The notes under the pieces: generated by a model
Database searches by the model: none
Seen by the model: only the letters and a program-made list of their open reading frames with translations
What the model was told of the DNA's origin: nothing
Program-made: the position numbers and the translations under genes
In this document: piece after piece, positions 1-13,003 of the stretch
How the letters are laid out: each line of letters begins with the position of its first letter
Position numbering within the stretch: the stretch's first letter is position 1
From: a virus
Lineage: Duplodnaviria; Heunggongvirae; Uroviricota; Caudoviricetes
Strand: one strand, 5' to 3'
Length of the DNA: 13,003 nt
Virus record (IMG/VR): IMGVR_UViG_2654587996_000003

Positions 1-1074
1 TCATTTGTTGATTTCAATTTTGTCCCATTCCCGTCCACGGCTGTCCCTATACCGCGCCGCCATTGAATCTGATTTATGCCCGAGAAGACGTTGAGCAAAC
101 TTATCGCCAATCTGGTTCAGGTATAGCCTCGCCGACAGGCTACGCAGTTCATGGAATGTTGGCGGGTCTCCATCAAATGAGAGTCCAGATGCATTTCTCG
201 CTTTTGTAAAATACTTCGATACTGTTTTCGGGGAAAGTGGTTCGTGATGCGTTGATGCAATTATTGTTTCACTGCTGCTGGTCTCCCTGCATTTCTGTAG
301 TGTATCAGCCAATGAGATATTGAGCGCGTCAATCGTTAGCGTCAGCGGAATGGCGAGCTTAGCCCCTGTTTTACTCTGTTCAATGTGAAGATGGTTGTCG
401 TTTATGTCTGACCATTTCATTCTGCACAAATCGCCCACTCTCTGCCCTGTAACGACAGCCAAATCCATTGCCAGCCTCAGCCAGATTGGGAGAGGTTCGG
501 CTGCATGGTAAATCGCGACATACTCATTAGCTGTCAGCCTTGAGCGCCTTACTTCTGACTTTGCTGTGCGGGTTGCTGTTACCGGATTCGTTGCCACATG
601 CCCCTCGGCTATTGCCTCACGAAAAACGTCAACAAGGGTTGACCTGATTAATTTTGCGGAAGCCGCTTTACCTTCTGCTACGTAGGTGTTTAGCATTGCT
701 GCCACCTCTTTCGTTGATATGTCAGCGAGCGGTTTGTCCGGCAATTTTCTTCGGATTGCCCTGATTTTGCTGGCGTAGTCGAGTAGAGTTTTCGGCCTGA
801 TACCCCTCTCGCTGAGGATTGTTTCATATCGGTCAAGCCACGCATGAAGAGTGATTACGTCAGCGCCTTTAATTCTGTCTATCAGTGACTCACGCCTGTT
901 CTCGGATAGTAACTCAATATTGGCCTGAATAGCCTCTGAAACTGCTATCCTTCTGTCTCTGCCTAATCCGAACTCTTTACCCGTCCTTGGGTCCCTGTAG
1001 CAGTAATATCCATTGTTTCTTATATAAAGGTTAGGGGGTAAATCCCGGCGCTCATGACTTCGCCTTCTTCCCAT
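1..1074 (-). CDS. int: Lambda-family tyrosine integrase (Int), apparently intact
   Basis: 357-aa ORF recognisably lambda-type Int (MGRRRSHERRDLPPNLYIRNNGYYCYRDPRTGKEFGLG arm-binding N-terminus). Catalytic residues appear present: R in VVTGQRVGDL, K in EQSKTGAK, H-x-x-R in PTFHELRSL, H in LLGHKSD, Y in AARYRDSRG. 23-nt overlap with xis, as in lambda. Diverged from lambda Int at many positions, so a relative rather than lambda itself. Confidence 0.95.
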   Translation of the reverse strand: MGRRRSHERRDLPPNLYIRNNGYYCYRDPRTGKEFGLGRDRRIAVSEAIQANIELLSENRRESLIDRIKGADVITLHAWLDRYETILSERGIRPKTLLDYASKIRAIRRKLPDKPLADISTKEVAAMLNTYVAEGKAASAKLIRSTLVDVFREAIAEGHVATNPVTATRTAKSEVRRSRLTANEYVAIYHAAEPLPIWLRLAMDLAVVTGQRVGDLCRMKWSDINDNHLHIEQSKTGAKLAIPLTLTIDALNISLADTLQKCRETSSSETIIASTHHEPLSPKTVSKYFTKARNASGLSFDGDPPTFHELRSLSARLYLNQIGDKFAQRLLGHKSDSMAARYRDSRGREWDKIEINK

Positions 1075-1270
1075 TTCTGATCCTCTTCAAAAGGCTACCT
1101 GTTACTGGTCGATTTAAGTCAACCTTTACCGCTGATTCGTGGAACAGATACTCTCTTCCATCCTTAACCGGAGGTGGGAATATCCTGCATTCGCGAACCC
1201 ATCGACGAACTGTTTCAGGGCTTCTTGGGCGTCGCTGGCGTGCGTTCCACTCCTGAAGTGTCAAGTACAT
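1052..1270 (-). CDS. xis: Excisionase Xis
   Basis: 72-aa ORF MYLTLQEWNARQRRPRSPETVRRWVRECRIFPPPVKDGREYLFHESAVKVDLNRPVTG..KRIRNGKKAKS, near-identical to lambda Xis as I recall it; overlaps the int start. Confidence 0.93.
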   Translation of the reverse strand: MYLTLQEWNARQRRPRSPETVRRWVRECRIFPPPVKDGREYLFHESAVKVDLNRPVTGSLLKRIRNGKKAKS

Positions 1271-1294
1271 CGCAAAGTCTCCGCAATTACACGC

Positions 1295-1317
1295 AAGAAA
1301 AAACCGCCATCAGGCGG
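1295..1317 (-). terminator. Putative intrinsic terminator (minus strand) between the 49-aa ORF and xis
   Basis: Plus-strand ccgcc-atca-ggcgg (1304-1317) forms a 5-bp GC stem; on the minus strand it is followed by TTTTTTCTT (complement of 1295-1303). The stop codon of the upstream small ORF lies in the loop. Confidence 0.4.
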
Positions 1318-1459
1318 CTTGGTGTTCTTTCAGTTCTTCAATTCGAATATTGGTTATGTCTGCATGTGCTATCTGCGCCCATATCATCCAGTGGTCATAG
1401 CAGTCATTGATGTTCTCTGCTTCGATAACTCTGTTGAATGGTTCTCCATTCCATTCCAT
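1310..1459 (-). CDS. Small hypothetical protein (49 aa) in lambda-like segment upstream of xis
   Basis: Hand-translated minus-strand ORF MEWNGEPFNRVIEAENINDCYDHWMIWAQIAHADITNIRIEELKEHQAA, open with no internal stop, ending in a hairpin terminator. AGGTGA lies immediately upstream of the ATG, too close for ideal spacing. Below the ORF-track size cutoff. Confidence 0.3.
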   Translation of the reverse strand: MEWNGEPFNRVIEAENINDCYDHWMIWAQIAHADITNIRIEELKEHQAA

Positions 1460-1490
1460 TCACCTGTGACTCGGAAGTGCATTTATCATC

Positions 1491-1520
1491 TCCATAAAAC
1501 AAAACTCGCCGTAGCGAGTT
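1491..1520 (-). terminator. Putative intrinsic terminator (minus strand)
   Basis: Inverted repeat aactcgc-cgta-gcgagtt (1503-1520), 7-bp stem; the minus-strand transcript continues UUGUUUUAUGGA. Confidence 0.3.
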
Positions 1521-1675
1521 CAGATAAAAGAAATCCCCGCGAGTGCGAGGATTGTTATTCATTGTCGATATTTACATTTATTTCGAATATCTTTACTGGG
1601 TAATCGCCAAAGTCATATGTTTTTTATTCTGTTTTATAAGCACTACCAAGTACTGCTTATTACAAATAAGAAAAG

Positions 1676-1709
1676 GCTGAAAAAAATATTTAAGGCCACA
1701 ACTGTGGCC
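1676..1709 (-). terminator. Putative intrinsic terminator downstream of the DUF1311 gene (minus strand)
   Basis: ggccac-aact-gtggcc hairpin (1694-1709) placed 11 nt after the stop at 1720; on the minus strand it is followed by UUAAAUAUUUUUUUC. Confidence 0.45.
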
Positions 1710-1719
1710 CTAAATTTAC

Positions 1720-2418
1720 TTACGGCACTGCGTTAATCAGATTACAAATACCTCTTTTGGCAGGGTCTGAATTCAACTTCTGAAAATTGGCGTTCAACAT
1801 AGCAGTGTGTAAGTGATTCTCAACCTCAAAGAATAGGTCGATTTTGCCCTCTTTGGCTGCCTGTTTCTTCCAAACATTCACTTGGTCATCAGCAATACGA
1901 CTGGCGCAAGTGAACAAGAACGAACTGCCTCTAGGAATGGATGTCGTGCTGTAATACTCACCATCTACTTCTACATATTTAGCTCGGAATGACTCTAAGG
2001 TTAGCTCATTGCCGTTCTTGACCGACTTAGCTTCTGCCTTACTTGTTTCTTCCTGCTCTTCAGAATGTTTCTGCGCCGACGTGGGTATCTCATTGGCCGC
2101 TGTTACGCTGACTGAACTCCCCAAACCGTTGAGGCCATTAATTTGGATAAGATAAGCCAGCTCCAGAGCCTTATTATCAGTGAGTTTTCCACGCATATTT
2201 ACCCACTGACGTTGAACCATTTTTAGGGTGTCTGCGTTCTCTGGGTTTTCTTTGAGGGCACTAGAATAGGCAGAGCTAAGCTGTTCGTCTAATTTTGACA
2301 GACGTTCGTTATCGCAGATTTTATGTTCGATTGCTGTCGAAGCCTTTTGGCAGTCAAAGCTGGCTGCAAATGCACCCGGCGATGCCACTAACAATGATGC
2401 CAGTAGGATATTTTTCAT
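1720..2418 (-). CDS. Secreted protein with N-terminal DUF1311 (LprI-N-terminal-like) domain; C-terminal ~110 aa unknown
   Basis: ORF-track 1720..2445. I place the start at internal ATG 2418 because GGAG sits 8 nt upstream and it yields a classic Sec signal peptide MKNILLASLLVASPGAFA/AS. The mature N-terminus FDCQKASTAIEHKICDNERLSKLDEQLSSAY...QRQWVNMRG fits the C..A.T..E..IC....L..LD..L...Y...Q..W pattern I associate with DUF1311. Confidence 0.7.
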   Translation of the reverse strand: MKNILLASLLVASPGAFAASFDCQKASTAIEHKICDNERLSKLDEQLSSAYSSALKENPENADTLKMVQRQWVNMRGKLTDNKALELAYLIQINGLNGLGSSVSVTAANEIPTSAQKHSEEQEETSKAEAKSVKNGNELTLESFRAKYVEVDGEYYSTTSIPRGSSFLFTCASRIADDQVNVWKKQAAKEGKIDLFFEVENHLHTAMLNANFQKLNSDPAKRGICNLINAVP

Positions 2419-2548
2419 ATTCACTCCATAAATACAAAAGCGCATTACTATAGCACTTAACCGATCGCTTATCTCGCCCGTTCGTCATTCTTATCTAACC
2501 AGAACATGCGGCTGCCACAGCACATGTCGAGGATCGCTGCATGTCCAG

Positions 2549-2716
2549 TCACCGGTTGCCTCCTTTGCGCAATATCGCATTCAGATATTTGTTTTGATTC
2601 ACTGATGGAAACGAGTTTCGCTTAAGTAATTCCTCTCTCGATGGCATTGGCTTTACGCGTTGGCGAATAATCATTTCTGCCGGAAGAATGCCGGGATTGT
2701 ATGCAAGTCCTCTCAT
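2549..2716 (-). CDS. Small hypothetical protein (55 aa), translationally coupled to the upstream 93-aa ORF
   Basis: Hand-translated [55 protein letters not shown]. Its ATG overlaps the TGA of the 93-aa ORF (ATGA at 2713-2716); GAGAG lies ~6 nt upstream. Below the ORF-track size cutoff. Confidence 0.35.
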
Positions 2717-2994
2717 GATTTACTCTCAACGAACTGGTCAATAGCCATGCTAAGTGACATACCTAAAGTTTCGATATGCTGCTGAATATCCTGTAGCGTC
2801 TGCGCCTGAGATAACAGGATTTCACGGTTGCATAACTCTTTAACCAGATGCTCAAACTTGCTGTAATAACCGATACGACTTAGTGTTTCTTTCCCTGCAT
2901 TCTCGCCTTCTTTGATAATTCCTCTTTCGCTAAGAATCAGATCGTGTTTGGTTCCGGTAATAACGTATTTTCCGAGGTCGATGTTTAGCTTCAT
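2713..2994 (-). CDS. Hypothetical protein (93 aa), no family recognised
   Basis: ATG-initiated ORF in the same orientation and tight spacing as flanking genes (16 nt after the 104-aa ORF stop; 4-nt overlap with the next ORF). Confidence 0.5.
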
Positions 2995-3010
2995 TGTTAA
3001 TTATTCCATG

Positions 3011-3325
3011 TTAATTTATTCGTATGCCTGCTCTTTCTTCATCGAGTTTTTTTAGCTTGTATCGCATAGCCCTTACTGAATAAATTGAGCGGCAGGTTGC
3101 AATTGCTATTTCTTCTGCGGAGAACTTACCGAAAAGTGATACTTCGGCTCTTGTCCAGCGTCTTCCACGAAGTCGGCTAACAATGTCAGCTCCAATCCTT
3201 GTTGCTTTCGCCATTACTGCTTTTTCAGTCCTTTCCAGTTTTTCAGCGATAACTTCAACTGGCATTGTTGCCGCTACTTCGCACAAGAAATCGACTTCCC
3301 ATTTCTCCCATGGAGTCTTTTTCAT
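3011..3325 (-). CDS. Hypothetical protein (104 aa) with an internal tandem duplication; possibly DNA-binding (speculative)
   Basis: ATG-initiated ORF 12 nt downstream of the Gp157-like gene. Two similar segments, WEKWEVDFLCEVAATMPVEVIAEKLERTEKAVMAKATRIG and WTRAEVSLFGKFSAEEIAIATCRSIYSVRAMRYKLKKL, share a W..(A)EV..(F/L)...(E/V)(V/E)IA.....R....AV/AM pattern. Confidence 0.5.
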   Translation of the reverse strand: MKKTPWEKWEVDFLCEVAATMPVEVIAEKLERTEKAVMAKATRIGADIVSRLRGRRWTRAEVSLFGKFSAEEIAIATCRSIYSVRAMRYKLKKLDEERAGIRIN

Positions 3326-3336
3326 AGTCGATACCG

Positions 3337-3819
3337 TTATTTGATAAGAAGTGAAGGTTTCCCAACTTTGAGTTGAGCGCCGGGGATATTTATTCCTGCT
3401 TTTAGTTGGTGTTTGATTGCCAGTTTGTCGGCTTTAATTGTCGTTTCAAACTCAACGTATTCAGGAGGAAGGGCGCTTGAGTCGATGATTTCTACAGTTT
3501 CTGACGGTTTGCGGATTGTTACTTGGTGAATACCTGCTCGAATCTTTTTCTTGCCAACCATTTCAAGCGATGACGCTATATACGCCATAATGCTGTCAAT
3601 CTTATTTTGAATTACTGCGGCTCGTTCATTCAGTGACTTTGCCTCGTCCTTGAGGCGTTCAGCATAACCAGATTCATTTTTAATAATGGCGAGAAGTTGC
3701 TCTATTTTATCGGTAAATTCTCCTTCCATTCCTTCTATTGTGTCAGCAATCATCTCTGGCTCTAAATCTGAATCCATCAATTTTGCGTATTCATTGGCTA
3801 TTTCATATAGTTTGCTCAC
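3337..3819 (-). CDS. Gp157-like (or Mu-Gam-like) accessory protein of a RecT recombination module
   Basis: ORF-track 3337..3825, where the M is a TTG codon. A better start is GTG at 3819, preceded by GGAGG at 6-nt spacing. Coiled-coil-like N-terminus plus a beta-rich C-terminus, sitting directly downstream of recT; recalled from memory as the siphovirus Gp157 family. Start overlaps the recT remnant stop. Confidence 0.6.
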   Translation of the reverse strand: MSKLYEIANEYAKLMDSDLEPEMIADTIEGMEGEFTDKIEQLLAIIKNESGYAERLKDEAKSLNERAAVIQNKIDSIMAYIASSLEMVGKKKIRAGIHQVTIRKPSETVEIIDSSALPPEYVEFETTIKADKLAIKHQLKAGINIPGAQLKVGKPSLLIK

Positions 3820-4372
3820 TGGCAACCTCCAGTTTCGCTTTGCATTCTATGTAAATGGCTTGTACGTTCTGCTGCAATTTCATTCCAGATGTCAGGCGAT
3901 ATGCTTCTGCAAAATATCGCTTCAAATCATCCATGTTTTCTGCCTGAGCCATTTCATCACAAAGAAGTTGTGCTTTTTCCATTATTTCCTGCTGGCGTTT
4001 CCGTTCATCTTCGCGGATATCTTCCTCTGATTTGTGCGGCATAACTGGTTCCTGATGCATACCTTCATCTTCGTTAAGCAGGTGAATGGCATTATCCAGT
4101 CGCTGGGCTTTAGGCCAGTATTTGCTGGCGCGTTTAACTATGGTTTTACGCGCCATCTCTTCCCAGAATGTCTTCCACGGTCCATTCTTTGCCTTGCTCG
4201 TTGCTTCCACAGCTTTAATTTCTGCCAGACTCATTTCTTCAGTCAGGTAGTCACCATCTGCTGTTTTAACCGTGCAATAACCTCCAACAATAGAGCCTCG
4301 CTCACCAAATGCGTTGTATTTGTGGGTTGGTGCTGAATCAAGGCCATTTGATTCATAGGTGTCGTTTGAGTA
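3803..4372 (-). pseudogene. recT: RecT-family single-strand annealing recombinase, 5-prime truncated (C-terminal ~189 codons only)
   Basis: The ORF-track fragment (3803..4234) contains ..NGPWKTFWEEMARKTIVKRASKYWP.., matching the RecT motif ..NGPWVTHWEEMAKKTAIRRLFKYLP... I hand-extended the frame upstream of the Met (..[35 protein letters not shown]..) and it stays RecT-like until an in-frame stop at 4373-4375. No N-terminal ~150 aa and no start codon. Confidence 0.7.
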
Positions 4373-4488
4373 TCAAAGGCGCATGTGATCAGCTACGGCG
4401 CTGGACATACGCTGGCGGTAAGCAATGGAAAGGGCTGATGACTCGCCGCGAGATTGAGCGTGAAGTCTGTTTGTGGGGGCAACAATGA
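4366..4488 (+). pseudogene. Phage lysozyme (endolysin R, P21/DLP12-type) 3-prime remnant, last ~40 codons only
   Basis: Hand translation of the frame ending at TGA 4486-4488 gives ..[38 protein letters not shown], which I recognise as the C-terminus of P21/RrrD-type lysozymes. The stop overlaps the Rz ATG (ATGA), as in lambdoid lysis cassettes. An in-frame stop at 4357-4359 and the recT-derived sequence lie immediately upstream. Confidence 0.6.
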
Positions 4489-4928
4489 GCAGAGTAACCG
4501 CGATTATCTCCGCTCTGGTTATCTGCATCATCGTCTGCCTGTCATGGGCGGTTAATCATTACCGTGATAACGCCATCACTTACAAAAAGCAGCGTGATAA
4601 GGCCACATCCACAATCGCTGACATGCAGAAGCGTCAACGTGATTTAGCTGAACTCGATGCCAGATATACAAAGGAGCTTGCTGATGCTAACGCGACTATC
4701 GAAAGTCTTCGTGCTGATGTTTCTGCTGGTCGTAAGTGGCTGCACGTCAAAGCAGTCTGTCCGGACAAGCATAAAACCACCGCCGCCTCCGGCGTGGATG
4801 ATGCTTCCAGCCCCAGACTTACTGACACCGCTCAACGGGATTATTTCGTTCTCAGAGAGCGCATCGAAACCATAACTAACCAATTGAATGGCCTGCAAGA
4901 GTATGTGAGATCACAGTGTTCATATTAG
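4485..4928 (+). CDS. Rz: Rz i-spanin (inner-membrane spanin subunit)
   Basis: ORF-track 4473..4928 (GTG). The ATG at 4485 gives [34 protein letters not shown]..., near-identical at the N-terminus to lambda Rz; N-terminal TM helix followed by a coiled-coil region. Confidence 0.9.
4684..4875 (+). CDS. Rz1: Rz1 o-spanin lipoprotein, embedded in the +1 frame of Rz
   Basis: ORF-track 4657..4875. Internal ATG at 4684 gives [20 protein letters not shown]|TSKQSV...KPPPPPAW...TPLNGIIS: lipobox Cys at residue 20, proline-rich mature part, matching lambda Rz1 in length and motifs. Confidence 0.85.
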
Positions 4929-4966
4929 AAAAGTCTTATCATAAGATTTTTGTATATGGATGCATT

Positions 4967-5341
4967 ATGTCTCAATACGCGCGCGCCGCTTTAATTGCTT
5001 ATTATTTGGTTGCTGATAATTCAATATCCCCTCGTGATGCATGGGATGCTGCTGTCGCTGAGGTTACAGAAAGCGAATCGGCAAGAAAGAAGGGATGCCC
5101 AAGGGCAACGTTTCTCGCTCTGGCGGATAGCGGTTATCTGAAGAATGTAAAACCACATCATGGGGAGAAAAAGATCGGTAAGTTGTACCAAAGGGCAATT
5201 GAAGTTGCGAATCTGATTCTTGATTTACCCGGAATTAGCAAAGCTGAGCTAGTTGATAAAACTTGCTATAAAGACAGGCAAGGGGCTTATGACATTGCTC
5301 TAACTCTCGCTCAGTGCGGATTACTCCAGCGTCCTCAATAA
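4967..5341 (+). CDS. Hypothetical protein (~124 aa) between the lysis cassette and cos; no family recognised
   Basis: ORF-track 4916..5341 (GTG overlapping the Rz end). First ATG at 4967 gives MSQYARAALIAYYLVADNSISPRDAWDAAVAEVTESESARKKGCPRATFLALADSGYL...; start choice is uncertain. Followed 19 nt later by a hairpin plus T-tract terminator. Confidence 0.5.
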   Translation: MSQYARAALIAYYLVADNSISPRDAWDAAVAEVTESESARKKGCPRATFLALADSGYLKNVKPHHGEKKIGKLYQRAIEVANLILDLPGISKAELVDKTCYKDRQGAYDIALTLAQCGLLQRPQ

Positions 5342-5359
5342 GATATTAAGTGATTTATG

Positions 5360-5383
5360 GCCTCGCTTTTAGCGGGGCTTTTT
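5360..5383 (+). terminator. Putative intrinsic terminator after the 124-aa ORF
   Basis: gcctcgc-tttta-gcggggc (7-bp stem with one G-U pair) followed by TTTTT at 5379-5383. Confidence 0.5.
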
Positions 5384-5770
5384 CATATCTGAATCTCACC
5401 ATGCATATCATCACCTGACTGGAACGTCAGGAGAATTCGTTACGGGGATTCGATAAAGGTATTCAAGCCTGACACATTATGCGCTGTATCGTCGCCGTAT
5501 TCCCGCATTAACCATGACCGTAGCCCGACGGGGAATTCCTTCTGCGCGAGTGTGCGGGAATAATCAAAAACGATGCACACCGGGTTTTTACCGCGTTTAT
5601 GATTCGCGGGTTTGTCCCTCATGCTCGCCAGTCCTGTGCGGGGGTGGAAGAAACAGGACGTGTATTCAGGTCTGTGCGACCGTGGTCGCACGACTTTGGT
5701 CGTTCAGATATTAAATCCCATTGCGAAGTAAACCCGAATTGCTGGCGGGTCCTTTCCGGCAATCCAGAAC

Positions 5771-5965
5771 GTTACGGGGCGGAAGGCGCGCGGGTTTTCG
5801 CTATTTATGAAAATTTTCCGGTTTAAGGCGTTTCCGTTCTTCTTCGCCGTAACTTAATGTTTTTATTTAAAACACCCTCTGAAAAGAAAGGAAACGACAG
5901 GTGCTGAAAACGAGCTTTTTGGCCTCTGTCGTTTCCTTTCTCTGTTTTTGTCCGTGGAATGAACA
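5771..5965. promoter_or_regulatory. cos: Lambda-type cos site: cosN (about 5777-5788) plus cosB with terminase-binding R elements, immediately upstream of Nu1
   Basis: Sequence gttacg GGGCGGAAGGCG CGCGGGTTTTCGCTATTTATGAAAATTTTCCGGTTTAAGGCGTTTCCGTTCTTCTTCG...GAAAGGAAACGACAG...CTGTCGTTTCCTTTC matches the lambda left end and cosB as I recall them, except within the 12-nt cosN core (lambda GGGCGGCGACCT). Inverted R2/R1 CGTTTCC elements are present. Confidence 0.75.
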
Positions 5966-6700
5966 ATGGAAGTCAACAAAAAGCAGCTGGCTGACATTTT
6001 CGGCGCGAGTATCCGTACCATTCAGAACTGGCAGGAGCAGGGAATGCCCGTTCTGCGGGGTGGTGGCAAGGGTAATGAAGTGCTTTATGACTCTGCCGCC
6101 GCCATAAAATGGTATGCCGAAAGGGATGCTGAAATTGAGAACGAAAAGCTGCGCCGGGAAGTTGAAGAACTGCGGCAGGCCAGCGAGACAGATCTCCAGC
6201 CAGGGACTATTGAGTACGAACGCCATCGACTTACGCGTGCGCAGGCCGACGCACAGGAGCTGAAAAATGCCAGAGACTCCGCTGAAGTGGTGGAAACCGC
6301 ATTCTGTACTTTCGTGCTGTCGCGGATCGCAGGTGAAATTGCCAGTATTCTCGACGGGATCCCCCTGTCGGTGCAGCGGCGTTTTCCGGAACTGGAAAAC
6401 CGACATGTTGATTTCCTGAAACGGGATATCATCAAAGCCATGAACAAAGCAGCCGCGCTGGATGAACTGATATCGACTTTCTCCGGGGATTATCTCCGCG
6501 TAACTGACAACAAGGGGAAAACGCACGACGTGCTGACCGGAAGTGATGACGGTCGCCACAGCAACACGTCTCTGACGTGGGGAGCTGGCGTGCAGTTTAA
6601 CCCGACCGAATCCGTGGCCATTGATATTGCTTATGAAGGCTCCGGCAGTGGTGACTGGCGCACTGACGGTTTCATCGTGGGTGTCGGTTATAAATTCTGA
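5966..6700 (+). pseudogene. nu1: In-frame chimera: terminase small subunit Nu1 (residues 1 to ~169) fused to the C-terminal ~75 residues of outer-membrane protein Lom
   Basis: Residues 1-169 (MEVNKKQLADIFGASIRTIQNWQEQGMPVLRGGGKGNEVLYDSAA...NKAAALDELI) match lambda Nu1. From about nt 6474 the protein switches to ..TSLTWGAGVQFNPTESVAIDIAYEGSGSGDWRTDGFIVGVGYKF, the Lom/Ail-family C-terminal beta-strands. A strong terminator follows, as after lom in lambda. Confidence 0.8.
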
Positions 6701-6753: not shown

Positions 6754-6764
6754 GTGGGGTGAAT

Positions 6765-9700
6765 ATGGCAGTAAAGATTTCAGGTGTACTGAAAGACGGC
6801 ACAGGAAAACCGGTACAGAACTGCACAATCCAGCTGAAAGCAAAACGTAACAGCACCACGGTGGTGGTGAACACGCTGGCCTCAGAAAATCCGGATGAAG
6901 CCGGGCGTTACAGCATGGACGTTGAGCACGGTCAGTACAGCGTTATTCTGTTGGTGGAGGGGTTCCCGCCATCACATGCCGGGACCATTACCGTGTATGA
7001 AGATTCCCGACCCGGTACGCTGAATGATTTTCTCGGTGCCATGACGGAGGATGATGCCCGTCCGGAGGCACTACGCCGTTTTGAACTGATGGTGGAAGAG
7101 GTGGCGCGTAACGCGTCCGCGGTGGCACAGAACACGGCAGCCGCGAAGAAGTCAGCCAGCGATGCCGGCACATCAGCCCGTGAGGCGGCAACCCATGCGA
7201 CTGATGCTGCAGGCTCAGCACGTGCAGCCAGCACATCAGCCGGGCAGGCCGCGACGTCGGCTCAGTCAGCATCTTCCAGCGCAGGAACGGCATCAACAAA
7301 GGCCAGTGAAGCGGAAAAAAGTGCTGCCGCTGCAGAGTCCTCAAAAAGCGCGGCAGCCACCAGTGCCGCTGCGGCGAAAACGTCGGAAACGAATGCGGCA
7401 GCGTCACAACAATCAGCAGCCACTTCTGCATCCGCCGCGACCATGAAGGCGTCAGAAGCTGCCACCTCAGCCCGGGATGCGGCGGCCTCAAAAGAGGCAG
7501 CGAAATCATCAGAAACGAACGCATCATCAAGCGCCAGTAGTGCCGCTTCCTCGGCAACGGCAGCAGGCAATTCCGCGAAGGCGGCAAAGACGTCCGAGAC
7601 AAACGCCAGGTCTTCTGAAACGGCAGCGGGACAGAGCGCCTCGGCTGCGGCAGGCTCAAAAACAGCGGCTGCGTCGTCTGCCAGTGCAGCGTCAACAAGT
7701 GCCGGGCAGGCCTCAGCCAGTGCCACCGCCGCCGGAAAATCGGCAGAAAGTGCCGCATCGTCTGCTTCAACAGCCACAACGAAGGCTGGCGAAGCCACTG
7801 AACAGGCCAGCGCAGCAGCGAGGTCTGCTTCCGCAGCGAAGACATCCGAGACGAACGCGAAAGCGTCGGAAACCAGCGCAGAATCCTCAAAAACGGCTGC
7901 CGCATCGTCCGCCAGTTCGGCGGCGTCATCGGCATCATCGGCGTCTGCTTCAAAAGATGAGGCGACCAGACAAGCGTCCGCAGCGAAGGGCAGCGCCACG
8001 ACAGCATCCACGAAGGCGACAGAGGCAGCTGGCAGTGCGACGGCGGCAGCACAGAGCAAAAGTACGGCGGAATCCGCGGCAACGCGCGCCGAGACAGCGG
8101 CAAAACGGGCAGAGGATATTGCATCCGCCGTGGCGCTTGAGGATGCGAGCACGACGAAAAAGGGGATAGTACAGCTCAGCAGCGCGACCAACAGCACGTC
8201 TGAAACGCTGGCGGCAACGCCAAAGGCAGTAAAAGCAGCCTATGACAATGCAGAGAAACGTCTGCAGAAAGACCAGAACGGCGCTGATATACCCGATAAG
8301 GGACGCTTCCTGAACAACATTAACGCGGTCAGTAAAACAGACTTTGCTGATAAGCGTGGTATGCGTTATGTGCGGGTTAACGCTCCTGCAGGTGCAACAT
8401 CTGGAAAATATTATCCTGTTGTTGTTATGCGTTCTGCTGGCTCAGTAAGCGAACTGGCATCAAGGGTCATTATCACCACGGCAACGCGAACCGCAGGCGA
8501 TCCGATGAATAACTGCGAGTTTAACGGATTTGTTATGCCTGGTGGCTGGACTGACAGGGGGCGTTATGCTTATGGAATGTTCTGGCAATATCAAAACAAT
8601 GAACGAGCCATCCACTCAATAATGATGAGTAATAAGGGCGATGATTTGCGCTCTGTGTTCTATGTTGATGGCGCTGCTTTCCCTGTTTTTGCGTTTATCG
8701 AAGATGGCCTGTCAATATCCGCACCTGGTGCTGATCTCGTTGTTGATGATACGACCTATAAGTTTGGGGCAACAAATCCGGCGACTGAATGTATCGCGGC
8801 GGACGTTATCCTTGATTTTAAGAGTGGGCGTGGTTTTTATGAGTCCCATTCGTTAATCGTTAACGATAACTTGTCGTGCAAAAAACTTTTTGCCACAGAC
8901 GAAATTGTAGCGCGTGGTGGTAATCAGATTCGAATGATAGGTGGGGAGTATGGGGCATTATGGCGTAATGATGGCGCTAAAACTTACCTGCTGCTTACCA
9001 ATCAAGGTGATGTTTATGGTGGATGGAATACATTAAGACCGTTTGCTATTGATAACGCAACCGGCGAACTGGTTATTGGAACCAAGCTGTCTGCAAGTCT
9101 GAACGGTAACGCATTGACAGCAACAAAGCTGCAAACGCCAAGACGGGTTTCTGGTGTTGAGTTTGATGGTTCCAAAGATATTACTTTAACCGCCGCGCAT
9201 GTGGCTGCTTTTGCCAGAAGGGCAACGGATACATATGCCGATGCGGATGGTGGCGTTCCCTGGAATGCCGAATCAGGCGCTTACAATGTCACCCGCTCTG
9301 GCGACAGCTATATTCTGGTTAACTTCTATACCGGAGTCGGAAGTTGCCGGACCCTGCAGATGAAGGCGCATTACAGAAATGGTGGTCTGTTCTACCGTTC
9401 TTCAAGAGACGGTTATGGTTTTGAGGAAGACTGGGCAGAAGTTTATACCTCGAAAAATCTTCCACCAGAAAGCTACCCAGTCGGCGCACCAATCCCGTGG
9501 CCATCAGATACCGTTCCGTCTGGTTATGCCCTGATGCAGGGGCAGACTTTTGACAAATCTGCTTACCCGAAACTTGCAGCCGCTTATCCGTCAGGCGTGA
9601 TCCCTGATATGCGTGGCTGGACGATTAAGGGCAAACCTGCCAGTGGTCGGGCCGTATTGTCTCAGGAACAGGACGGCATTAAATCGCATACCCACAGCGC

Positions 9701-10115
9701 CAGCGCATCCAGTACAGATTTGGGGACGAAAACCACATCGTCGTTTGATTACGGCACTAAATCCACGAATAACACCGGGGCACATACACACAGTGTTAGC
9801 GGTACGGCTGCTTCAGCCGGTGCACATACCCATTCGATGACATTTGTTTCAGGTGGTTCCAGTGGTGCTCCGGGAAGTGGATCACCTGATTATTCTAAAT
9901 ACAGTGTTAACACTTCTTCTGCAGGCGCTCATACGCACTCTGTATCGGGTACTGCTGCAAGCGCAGGTGCACATGCACATACTGTCGGTATTGGTGCTCA
10001 TACGCACTCTGTTGCGATTGGCTCACATGGACACACCATCACCGTTAACGCTGCTGGTAACGCGGAAAACACCGTCAAAAACATCGCATTTAACTACATT
10101 GTGAGGCTTGCATAA
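6765..10115 (+). CDS. stf: Side tail fibre protein (Stf; StfR/lambda-Stf-like), apparently full length (~1116 aa)
   Basis: ORF-track 6759..10115 (GTG); ATG at 6765 gives [37 protein letters not shown]..., the conserved Stf N-terminus. Long Ala/Ser/Thr-rich repetitive shaft; C-terminal GAHTHS-repeat receptor-binding region; stop overlaps the tfa ATG. Confidence 0.9.
7110..8150 (+). repeat. Ala/Ser/Thr-rich quasi-periodic coding repeats within the stf shaft
   Basis: Recurring peptide blocks such as [69 protein letters not shown] and [26 protein letters not shown]-rich DNA here generates long stop-free ORFs in other frames on both strands. Confidence 0.6.
9778..10045 (+). repeat. His-containing GAHTHS(V)[12 protein letters not shown] repeats in the stf C-terminal region
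   Basis: Repeated motifs [59 protein letters not shown]. The DNA copies differ at synonymous positions, so the repeat is conserved at protein level. Confidence 0.6.
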
Positions 10116-10802: not shown

Positions 10803-11591
10803 TTAAGCATCACGTATTGCCAATCTGATTTTTGACTGATACCAATTGGGGCCTTCTGCAATTATTTCTTCCTCAACATGCATGATGGGATGCATTTCAA
10901 TTTCAGAGTTTTTGACTTTCAGATCTAGTCCATATTTTTTTGAAATTTGTAAAACTTCATTTTTGAAATCCTTATCTGCGAAAGGTGAAATCCTTATTTC
11001 TTCCAACAGATTATTAAGAGATACAGGGACTAGTTTTCCCTTTACAGGTGGAGTGTTAAAGGTATTCTCTTGAAAAATAGCTCTAAACTCTTTTTCGTAT
11101 TCGAAAGATGGTCTCTTGTTAAAGAATACATCTGATTCTGGATTGTATTGTTTTATCCAGAAATTTTTGACGTATTTTACGTGTTTTAATTGTAGTTTGT
11201 TTAGATTATTATTTTCAAGTTGGCTTTGGAGGTTTTTTTTCTTTGATTTTATGACAACGCCTTTAGCGGGGTTTTTACAATACAGCTTCCACATAGCTTC
11301 AGATTCATGTTCGTTACAATGCCAGCAACTTATATATGTCCTCTCGCTTATTTCCTTAAGTGTCTTTAAATTGAATGCCATGAAAGGATCTAAGTCCATG
11401 CCGGCACCATGAGTAGCGCATAGTTTTTCCTGTGTCTCAATGAATTTTTTATAGCCAGTATGTCCCCAAGCAAATTCACCTTCGAACGGATCTTCAAAAT
11501 TTTTTGCTGAGCAAAAAAATAAAGCATTTTGTTCGAGTAACATAGAGAATTTCTCTATGTCAAGGTATCGCCATATATACTCAGTGTGCAT
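10803..11591 (-). CDS. Hypothetical protein (262 aa), DUF2971-like N-terminal motif; AT-rich cargo gene
   Basis: ORF-track 10803..11606, where the M is a TTG codon. ATG at 11591 is preceded by AGGAG at 5-nt spacing and gives MHTEYIWRYLDIEKFSMLLEQNALFFCSAKNFEDPFEGEF..., matching the Y.Y....l..lL....l.f.....F.DP.E block I associate with DUF2971. Lys/Asn-rich and visibly much more AT-rich than flanking phage DNA. Confidence 0.6.
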   Translation of the reverse strand: MHTEYIWRYLDIEKFSMLLEQNALFFCSAKNFEDPFEGEFAWGHTGYKKFIETQEKLCATHGAGMDLDPFMAFNLKTLKEISERTYISCWHCNEHESEAMWKLYCKNPAKGVVIKSKKKNLQSQLENNNLNKLQLKHVKYVKNFWIKQYNPESDVFFNKRPSFEYEKEFRAIFQENTFNTPPVKGKLVPVSLNNLLEEIRISPFADKDFKNEVLQISKKYGLDLKVKNSEIEMHPIMHVEEEIIAEGPNWYQSKIRLAIRDA

Positions 11592-11716
11592 GATAGCTCC
11601 TTGCAATATAACTATTTCTATCTGTTCATTTGTACTTAAAAAGGATTGAGTAGCCTGAACAGTTCTATCCGTAAATATACCAGATAGAAGAGTTGTACAA
11701 TAACAAATCCTCCGTA

Positions 11717-11800: not shown

Positions 11801-13003
11801 TTAGGCTTGTACCAACGCTTCTGTTTCTGTGAGTGAAATTTGATAGCGTTTTACTGCCTCAGCAAAGGCGTGCGCGGCATCTGCATTTGATACCATATAT
11901 TCTTCAGTTACCCCTGTTTGAGAATGGAAAGTAATATTTCCATAAATGCAAATAGGGATTTGGTAGTTGTCTTTAAAACGACGGTCTGGTGAGCCATTCT
12001 TATTCGTTTTCGCCCATGTATAACCATCTATGCGTGAGTCACTGGGAACACCTTCTTCCTCATGGAATCTTAGATATTCTGAACTAATTTGTAATTCGCG
12101 TAAATCAATCAGAGCGAATGCTCCATCAGCTCGTGGTATGACTGCAACTCCAGGATAAAGCAAAATATCGTCTCCATTTACATTTTCAAACCTCATCGCA
12201 CGCCCTGTAAATTGAATGAAATCCGTTGAACTAAAATCAAAGGTAACTGGGTGACGATTAACAGACCGGGTTGCTAATGTTCTTTCAGCAAACTGGTCTG
12301 TAGCTTTATCTGCAGTAATATCCCATTTTTTGACACTCGATTTTAACATATCAAATGCATGGACCATCGCTGCATATGCGCGCTGTGAAGCATCACTGCT
12401 CTCGAATGTTATGGCTATTTTTGTGCTGTCTTCCCATGAAACTAGGCGAGATATCTCAGCTTGGGTTAGGGGGAGTAGTGTCTCAAGTTCTGCGATGCGT
12501 CGTTTGTAAAACCAACGGAATAGACTTGATTTGCGTCGAGCCAGCTCGCTTTTTTGTTTTGATTCTTCGGCAAGAGCCTCTTGAAGATCTGCTTTTATCT
12601 CTGCTCTTTGTTCTCGTGCTTTAGCAATCAAATCTCGTAAAGGTAAAAGGGAGGTACTTGTAAGGACTTCTACCGAAGCGCTGGATATTTCATTCATGCC
12701 AGCTACAGGCATATATATTTTAGCGTTCGATGGTGTGTTTTCTGGAGATGACCCAGACTCCAAATGAGGTTCTGTAGGGGCTGGATTTAATGGATTGGTA
12801 ACTGAGTATCCATCATCATAGGGCAAGGTAGGTGTAGTATAAGATAAGCCTGTGCCCGGTAATCCGACAGTTGCTCTAACCCCTTTTTTACCAACATTGA
12901 CAGTTGCGCCAGGCACGCCAATGCTTGCACTTATTCCACGCTTGCCAATGTTGAGTCGAACGCCAGGAAATAGAGTAAAGGTTTGTCTGAAACGAAGAGA
13001 CAT
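11801..13003 (-). CDS. Hypothetical protein (400 aa) with N-terminal DUF4236-like domain; central coiled-coil-like segment; C-terminal ~200 aa unknown
   Basis: Start codon is the last three bases of the window. N-terminus MSLRFRQTFTLFPGVRLNIGKRGISASIGVPGATVNVGKKGVRATVGLPGTGLSYTT has the repeated G-x-R/K...G glycine-rich pattern I associate with DUF4236. A charged helical stretch (REQRAEIKADLQEALAEESKQKSELARRK) follows. Composition is lower in GC than the tail-fibre genes. Confidence 0.65.
   Translation of the reverse strand: MSLRFRQTFTLFPGVRLNIGKRGISASIGVPGATVNVGKKGVRATVGLPGTGLSYTTPTLPYDDGYSVTNPLNPAPTEPHLESGSSPENTPSNAKIYMPVAGMNEISSASVEVLTSTSLLPLRDLIAKAREQRAEIKADLQEALAEESKQKSELARRKSSLFRWFYKRRIAELETLLPLTQAEISRLVSWEDSTKIAITFESSDASQRAYAAMVHAFDMLKSSVKKWDITADKATDQFAERTLATRSVNRHPVTFDFSSTDFIQFTGRAMRFENVNGDDILLYPGVAVIPRADGAFALIDLRELQISSEYLRFHEEEGVPSDSRIDGYTWAKTNKNGSPDRRFKDNYQIPICIYGNITFHSQTGVTEEYMVSNADAAHAFAEAVKRYQISLTETEALVQA

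Follow-up and report, generated by a model that had tools for sequence, protein, structure and literature searches.

The stretch of DNA analyzed here, IMG/VR virus record IMGVR_UViG_2654587996_000003 (13,003 nucleotides, one strand; hereafter the window), is identical to a chromosomal segment of Escherichia coli strain M18 and of 12 other complete genomes. It is a heavily decayed lambda-like prophage, flanked in the E. coli chromosome by mdtA on one side and by the ibs/sib repeats on the other. From left to right, the window holds int and xis, accessory genes of the early-left operon, a truncated recT (recT'), a truncated endolysin gene (rrrD'), Rz/Rz1, a gene for a DUF6979 protein, a nu1::lom fusion, a tail-fiber gene, tfa, and two cargo genes on the minus strand. 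The subject of this report is the joint at 4371-4372, where the middle of recT meets the 3' end of rrrD.

The recT and rrrD remnants abut head to head

On the minus strand, recT' (3803-4372) comprises the last 189 codons and the stop codon (3803-3805) of a 300-codon gene for a RecT-family recombinase. An earlier note, made from the sequence alone, had described a RecT-like frame open from 3806 to about 4372 with no start codon. The open stretch ends exactly at 4372, directly downstream of an in-frame TGA at 4373-4375, and the frame offers no start codon before an internal ATG at 4234. Against the Pfam RecT profile (PF03837), recT' covers positions 84-186 of 198 only, compared with 5-186 for the intact 300-residue relative of OkiPb01684, and tblastn recovered only RecT residues 109-303 in the M18 element. 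The N-terminal 111 codons (333 nt) are missing. Related RecT genes in OkiPb01684, HK140, and PK5 are 300 to 303 codons long and extend 333 nt past the breakpoint, which removes the idea that the gene naturally starts near 4372. With its domain incomplete, recT' is a RecT-derived pseudogene rather than a functional single-stranded DNA-annealing recombinase gene of the RecT family. In strain M18, the Prokaryotic Genome Annotation Pipeline (PGAP) labels window 3803-4372 "recombinase RecT, incomplete, missing N-terminus."

On the plus strand, rrrD' (4372-4488) consists of the last 38 codons and the stop codon of a 165-codon gene for the endolysin R, a lysozyme of glycoside hydrolase family 24 (GH24) and of the phage 21 type. 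Positions 4372-4485 encode 38 residues (IKGACDQ...CLWGQQ), which tblastn aligns with residues 127-165 of the intact 165-residue RrrD of VCSW7. In the Pfam Phage_lysozyme profile (PF00959), the fragment covers positions 98-125 of 125, and intact RrrD covers 3-125. The N-terminal 127 codons (380 nt) are missing and presumably held the catalytic Glu/Asp/Thr residues, as we take from T4 and P21-type lysozymes. Here, too, the domain is incomplete, and rrrD' is a pseudogene remnant rather than a functional RrrD-type GH24 endolysin gene. The M18 annotation of 4372-4488 is [quoted passage not shown] The lysozyme-like piece is what remains of a gene of 165 codons, its 3' end, and not a complete small gene, and its coding sequence begins at 4372, on the strand opposite to recT' and as close to the end of that frame as had been proposed.

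The joint carries a 2-nt overlap and no filler

The joint was placed by an ungapped three-way comparison of the recT parent (L002) with the rrrD parents (L003 and L004). The recT locus of OkiPb01684 is 100% identical to window 3300-4372 and unrelated beyond it, and 11 further genomes with an intact recT (98.4-98.7% identity) lose homology at exactly 4372. From the other side, the intact rrrD loci of VCSW7 and Z1323HEC0477 match the window from 4371 rightward (99.6% DNA identity). The two parental sequences share the TA at 4371-4372, and with this 2-nt overlap they explain every base across the joint. Each parent's homology stops there, and both genes are truncated relative to their full-length relatives. 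The sharp junction predicted between the middle of recT on the minus strand and the last ~40 endolysin codons on the plus strand is thus confirmed at single-nucleotide resolution, with 189 of 300 and 38 of 165 codons kept.

Neither filler DNA nor an insertion sequence (IS) end nor a target duplication turned up at the joint in the parental comparison, and the parents share no imperfect homology within 15 nt on either side. PGAP annotates no transposase or IS feature in the element, and no IS abuts the joint as an IS-mediated adjacent deletion would require. Apart from short chance repeats, the vicinity of the joint has a single structure, an 8-nt perfect inverted repeat that is native to recT' and lies 17 nt away. 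A microhomology-mediated deletion is typically expected to show at least 3 to 4 shared nucleotides. Since the chance of sharing 2 or more nucleotides at a random blunt joint is ~0.16 (1 - 0.5625 - 0.28125), the TA overlap is no evidence for a microhomology-driven pathway. Broadly, the class of deletion would be illegitimate, homology-independent recombination.

The region between recT and rrrD is missing

To the left and to the right of the joint, the order and orientation of the genes follow those of intact lambdoid genomes (HK140, OkiPb01684, and PK5 on the left; VCSW7, Z1323HEC0477, and lambda on the right). HK140 and mEpX1 (Hendrixvirinae), OkiPb01684, and PK5 carry the same string as the window, DUF2737, DUF5405, D5-like, Gp157, and RecT, with 90-100% DNA identity up to 4372. 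Their RecT has 300 to 303 residues, and after its gene come gp42, cIII, ral, N, and the immunity region, whereas in the window everything beyond RecT codon 112 is gone. On the right, VCSW7, Z1323HEC0477, and the Lambdavirus phages 4A7, 4C10, 1W, and 3W show 96-99.6% DNA identity from 4371 through Rz, DUF6979, cos, and nu1. Their rrrD has 165 codons and stands behind the holin gene, Q, and pR', whereas the window element keeps the last 38 codons. In the VCSW7 prophage the order is Q, two tRNAs, essD, rrrD, Rz, DUF6979, and nohD, and it is likewise Q-tRNAs-essD-rrrD-Rz-DUF6979-nohD in Z1323HEC0477.

In intact relatives, the interval holds, in order, a small gene upstream of recT (gp42), cIII, ral, sieB, N, nutL, the repressor region (cI), cro, cII, O, P, ren, the nin genes, Q, pR'/qut, and the holin gene, and then come the endolysin gene and Rz. 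Between the corresponding points it measures ~11.3 kb in HK140 and ~12.8 kb in the PK5 prophage (including an insertion of ~1 kb). By analogy, the lost interval would have been about 11-13 kb long with about 25 genes.

The earlier note had listed N, the immunity region, the replication genes, the nin region, Q, the holin gene, and most of R as missing, and had pointed to cI, O/P, and Q as the homologs whose absence from the surroundings should be established. When 38 early, regulatory, and lysis proteins of HK140 and VCSW7 were compared by tblastn with 34 kb around the M18 element, only the two remnants matched; very divergent alleles could evade such a search, but no unassigned open reading frame (ORF) of fitting size has a matching Pfam domain. 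The PGAP lists for the M18 element region contain no repressor, replication, or antiterminator gene. All of these absences are thus borne out.

Because recT and R are divergent, a simple deletion removes both 5' ends and leaves the truncated genes head to head. No boxA-like (nut) site with two or fewer mismatches was found, and this absence, together with the missing N and the synteny, suggests that the early-left genes have lost pL. Lambdoid synteny and the missing Q similarly suggest that Rz/Rz1 have lost pR'. A promoter/terminator consensus scan of 3300-6000 gave four promoter-like sites compared with 4.2 expected, which is the chance level.

The composition of the flanks bears on whether a single prophage gave rise to the joint. 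The best phage relatives of the two sides are disjoint (EC.P3, E212, HK140, and mEpX1 on the left; Lambdavirus 4A7, 4C10, 1W, and 3W on the right), and the VCSW7 prophage, whose right flank is near-identical, has exo/bet/gam in place of recT. Such a pattern would be compatible with recombination between two prophages, an HK97/P22-like one supplying the left side with recT and a lambda-like one supplying the right side with rrrD-Rz-nohD. However, lambdoid genomes are mosaic, so differing best relatives for each module are expected. Moreover, the genes on the two sides are arranged and oriented exactly as in one lambdoid prophage, and the joint offers no homology able to drive homologous exchange between prophages. 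We consider a two-prophage origin very improbable.

The joint is shared by 13 genomes at one integration site

Among 5,426 complete E. coli genomes, 13 have the exact recT/rrrD joint, in every case at the mdtA-ibs site and with the same attL. The carriers are strains M1, M3, M8, M18, C10, C11, RM9387, L725, A31, ECO8855, ZYB39, GPEC709, and TK3887, and they were isolated from mouse, cow, human, rat, and chicken. We rejected an assembly artifact, as the 13 complete genomes were assembled independently. The 2.1-kb region around the joint is 99.7-100% identical among the 13 copies. Both recT' and rrrD' are free of secondary stops and frameshifts and are 99.6-100% identical to their intact relatives, which argues for a rather recent event or common ancestor and not for selection on the fragments.

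The joint also creates a 59-codon chimeric ORF on the plus strand (4309-4488), in which 21 codons antisense to recT continue into the rrrD frame; it is probably a meaningless by-product. That this ORF, or a C-terminal RecT fragment of 143 to 189 residues, is expressed and selected might be argued from the lack of internal stops and frameshifts and from the conservation of the joint in 13 genomes of diverse hosts. Recent common ancestry explains that conservation equally well, however, given that the whole 2.1 kb is conserved to the same degree. Furthermore, the RecT fragment is without profile positions 1-83, the joint has no start codon and no promoter-like signal above chance, and both pieces are pseudogenes according to PGAP. 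A functional junction is scarcely credible on these grounds.

Integration took place in the sib/ibs type I toxin-antitoxin repeats between mdtA and yegL, and a related integrase is found at the mdtA-ibs site in 84 complete genomes. A 111-bp direct repeat from the sib/ibs region, 91% identical, bounds an element of ~16.5 kb that reaches ~3.4 kb past the right end of the window. One copy lies at L001 5497-5607 and the other ~16.5 kb downstream (NZ_CP010219.1, around 968,450-968,550). The int and xis genes stand at one end, next to the attachment site, as in a lambdoid prophage. The next best relative of the int-to-cargo region (98%) is in Z1323PEC0012, where a differently decayed prophage occupies the same site. 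That prophage carries the type III effector genes cif, nleG, and espJ and several IS elements. The site hosts further prophages that decayed in other ways, and effector genes of this type occur in some of them.

A second deletion fused nu1 to lom

A second deletion scar lies at 5966-6700 on the plus strand, where nu1/nohD (terminase small subunit) runs in frame into the last 228 nt of lom, with the joint at 6472|6473. The resulting ORF of 244 codons matches the whole Pfam Phage_Nu1 profile (1-164 of 164) and positions 122-199 of 199 of Ail_Lom, and includes the last 76 lom codons; PGAP labels it merely "Ail/Lom family protein." In blastn comparisons with lambda, VCSW7, and TUM9812, homology to lambda nu1 stops at 6472 (lambda nt 697) and homology to lom starts at 6473. 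The loss corresponds to lambda 698-19357 (~18.7 kb), that is, A through J and the first 393 nt of lom. Judged by this gene content, the deletion removed all head and tail genes and would independently abolish particle formation. The 13 genomes with the recT/rrrD joint are also those that carry the nu1::lom joint in one uninterrupted stretch, so their distribution does not tell which deletion came first.

The remnant of ~16.5 kb and the losses of ~18.7 kb and ~11-13 kb add up to 46.5-48 kb, compared with ~49 kb for the Lambdavirus phages 4A7, 4C10, 1W, and 3W. The two deletions therefore cover essentially the whole missing genome, together ~30 kb of a ~47-kb genome. The sum, which amounts to one lambda-sized genome, also favors the view that a single ancestral prophage lost internal segments, rather than that two elements were patched together.

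Deletion joints at the 3' end of nu1 in three independent cryptic prophages fall within 3 nt of one another (lambda nt 697-700), and their right partners all differ. These joints lie at window 6457-6475, L009 3308-3330, and L012 1808-1830. In the window the right partner is the middle of lom. In TUM9812 the joint reads ...CTGATA|TGCCAGTGG and leads into J', and in EC416 it reads ...CTGATACCG|TTATGAG, with an earlier point of lom as the partner and ATACCG as a 6-nt microhomology. The breaks in two further decayed prophages lie 180-230 nt farther on, inside A, at lambda 930 (LH10-b-1) and 880 (NT1F10). A search for the exact pattern GCGCTGGATGAACTGATAT in a contig set with one genome per species, a set unsuited to the question, gave three chance matches only, in unrelated bacteria. 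The clustering may reflect a hot spot, selection that keeps nohD while terminase A is lost, or a small-sample coincidence.

The two deletions together removed the kil region, replication genes, the holin gene, the catalytic part of the endolysin, terminase A, and the structural genes, functions expected to be lethal or costly, and spared int/xis, the accessory early genes, the spanins, the tail fiber and tfa, and a candidate defense gene (DUF2971/PDC-S31). Together with the clustering at nu1, such a division could be taken to mean that the end-points of both deletions reflect hot spots or selection and that this is a domesticated element shaped by recurrent, site-preferred deletion and not by random decay. 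We find this broader reading rather doubtful.

Other genes of the element

The Rz (i-spanin) gene directly follows rrrD' and is intact (4485-4928, plus strand; Pfam Phage_lysis 10-125 of 126, E 2.8e-40; PGAP "lysis protein"). Its start still overlaps the rrrD' stop (ATGA), and it is now cut off from Q, pR', and the holin gene. A candidate Rz1-like (o-spanin) ORF at 4657-4875 on the plus strand, in the +1 frame inside Rz, has a lipobox-like LVVSGC and a proline-rich stretch; we take it to be Rz1-like from the Rz/Rz1 architecture of lambda. On the other side of the joint, the Siphovirus Gp157-family gene (3337-3825, minus strand) is also intact (Pfam Sipho_Gp157 1-162 of 162). It is the immediate downstream neighbor of recT in the early-left operon, with the same order in HK140, OkiPb01684, and PK5, and it overlaps the recT' stop.

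Further left, all on the minus strand, are the integrase gene (1-1074; ORF and PGAP), which forms the left prophage end and adjoins mdtA, and the excisionase gene (1052-1270; ORF, PGAP, and a PHROG excisionase match). A small early-left gene of PHROG 676 (1310-1482) is frameshifted according to PGAP, a minor decay separate from both large deletions. Between xis and DUF2737 lies an LprI-family (lysozyme-inhibitor-like) gene with an apparent signal peptide (1720-2445). It is conserved in related prophages at the mdtA-ibs site and elsewhere and looks like a moron-type insertion. The other early-left accessory genes encode DUF2737, DUF5405, and a D5-like small protein.

In the right part, the tail-fiber gene (6759-10115, plus strand; 1,118 codons) has a very long central low-complexity region rich in Ala, Ser, and Thr and C-terminal His-box repeats of the GAHTHS type. 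Because of this biased composition, big spurious ORFs overlap it in other frames and on the opposite strand. The two cargo genes on the minus strand are a DUF2971 gene (10803-11606), which matches the PADLOC candidate defense family PDC-S31 (E 1e-20), and a DUF4236 gene (11801-13003), located between tfa and the right end of the element. Two hypothetical proteins are encoded outside the window (L006 9331-10398 and 10751-11392), one with a weak, sub-threshold match to REase_MTES_1575.

Discussion

Taken together, these results lead us to read the scar at 4371-4372 as an illegitimate deletion inside a lambda-like prophage that joined the middle of recT to the 3' end of rrrD, to which we assign a probability of roughly 0.93. 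By all of its sequence features, the element qualifies as a defective (cryptic) lambdoid prophage with an internal deletion. The ancestral prophage would have carried recT in the leftward early operon and an rrrD-type R in the rightward late operon, with cIII/ral/N, the immunity region, O/P, nin, Q, pR', and the holin gene between them. Illegitimate recombination with an overlap of at most 2 nt (TA) would then have linked position 333 of recT with position 380 of rrrD, both counted from the gene start, removing ~11-13 kb, so that both genes lost their 5' ends and came to abut head to head. The product would have no repressor, replication origin or initiator, N/Q antitermination, holin, or catalytic part of the endolysin. 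The surviving early-left genes (Gp157, DUF5405, DUF2737, the LprI-like gene, xis, and int) would be without pL, and Rz/Rz1 without pR'. Combined with the nu1::lom deletion, this would yield an inert remnant of ~16.5 kb, inherited in a few E. coli lineages.

The same outcome could have been reached by a short series of nested events, perhaps begun by an IS insertion that was later lost. Other mdtA-ibs prophages and related early-left modules abound in insertions of IS66, IS3, and IS1 and contain multiple partial genes, and the decay of the element as a whole was multi-step, with a second independent deletion and a frameshifted small gene. On the other hand, no intermediate form occurs among the 5,426 complete genomes, and the joint is without IS remnant, target duplication, or filler; one event is the most parsimonious account. 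Successive nested deletions thus seem unlikely to us, though not far-fetched. The proposal of a single event in the earlier note is accordingly parsimonious and at the same time unproven, as nested deletions leave the same scar. Its further proposal that this deletion explains why the element is cryptic stands insofar as repressor, replication, and late activation were removed; as the sole cause it does not, as the nu1::lom deletion removed all morphogenesis genes.

Several points weigh against the deletion of a recT-to-rrrD interval from one prophage as we describe it. An undeleted progenitor was not found: among the 5,426 genomes, the int-to-cargo region (1-3300) occurs at 99% identity or more only in the 13 carriers of the joint. 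No sequenced phage has both types of flank, and the match lists of the two flanks are disjoint. Therefore, what the lost interval contained and how long it was can be judged by analogy only. The 2-nt overlap could be due to chance (P about 0.16) and thus does not single out a recombination pathway, and one event is indistinguishable from several nested deletions. Finally, the promoterless status of the surviving genes is deduced, and the consensus scan, being at the chance level, is neutral either way.

A prophage deletion scar of this kind is ordinary and already known in kind, and both pseudogenes are already in the RefSeq annotation. The analysis documents at nucleotide resolution how two large non-homologous deletions inactivated one lambdoid prophage at the mdtA-ibs site, and beyond correct annotation the finding matters little. 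Its RecT-like and lysozyme-like fragments are to be annotated as pseudogene remnants and not as small genes, and the scar, which 13 of the 5,426 complete genomes share in identical form, can serve as a convenient marker of lineage. The apparent clustering of independent deletion end-points at the nu1 3' end is the sole item that might merit more work.

The lambdoid remnants of E. coli K-12 kept int/xis, some early-left genes, parts of the lysis cassette, a nohD-type nu1, and stf/tfa, and lost regulation, replication, and morphogenesis genes by internal deletions, with truncated genes marking the scars. Among them, DLP12 retains an intact essD-rrrD-rzpD lysis module and a Q homolog, and Rac retains an intact recET. 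Their integration sites are argU, ttcA, icd, or ydfJ. For E. coli, prophage decay by internal deletion is textbook knowledge, with DLP12, Rac, Qin, and e14 of K-12 as the classic cases (PMC3105296, PMC6379469), and the lysis module of DLP12 has been described (PMC7918800). Like the K-12 cryptic prophages, the element studied here keeps int/xis, early-left genes, a partial lysis cassette, a nohD-type nu1, and stf/tfa. Unlike them, it occupies the mdtA-ibs/sib site, and rrrD and recT are themselves truncated at the scar.

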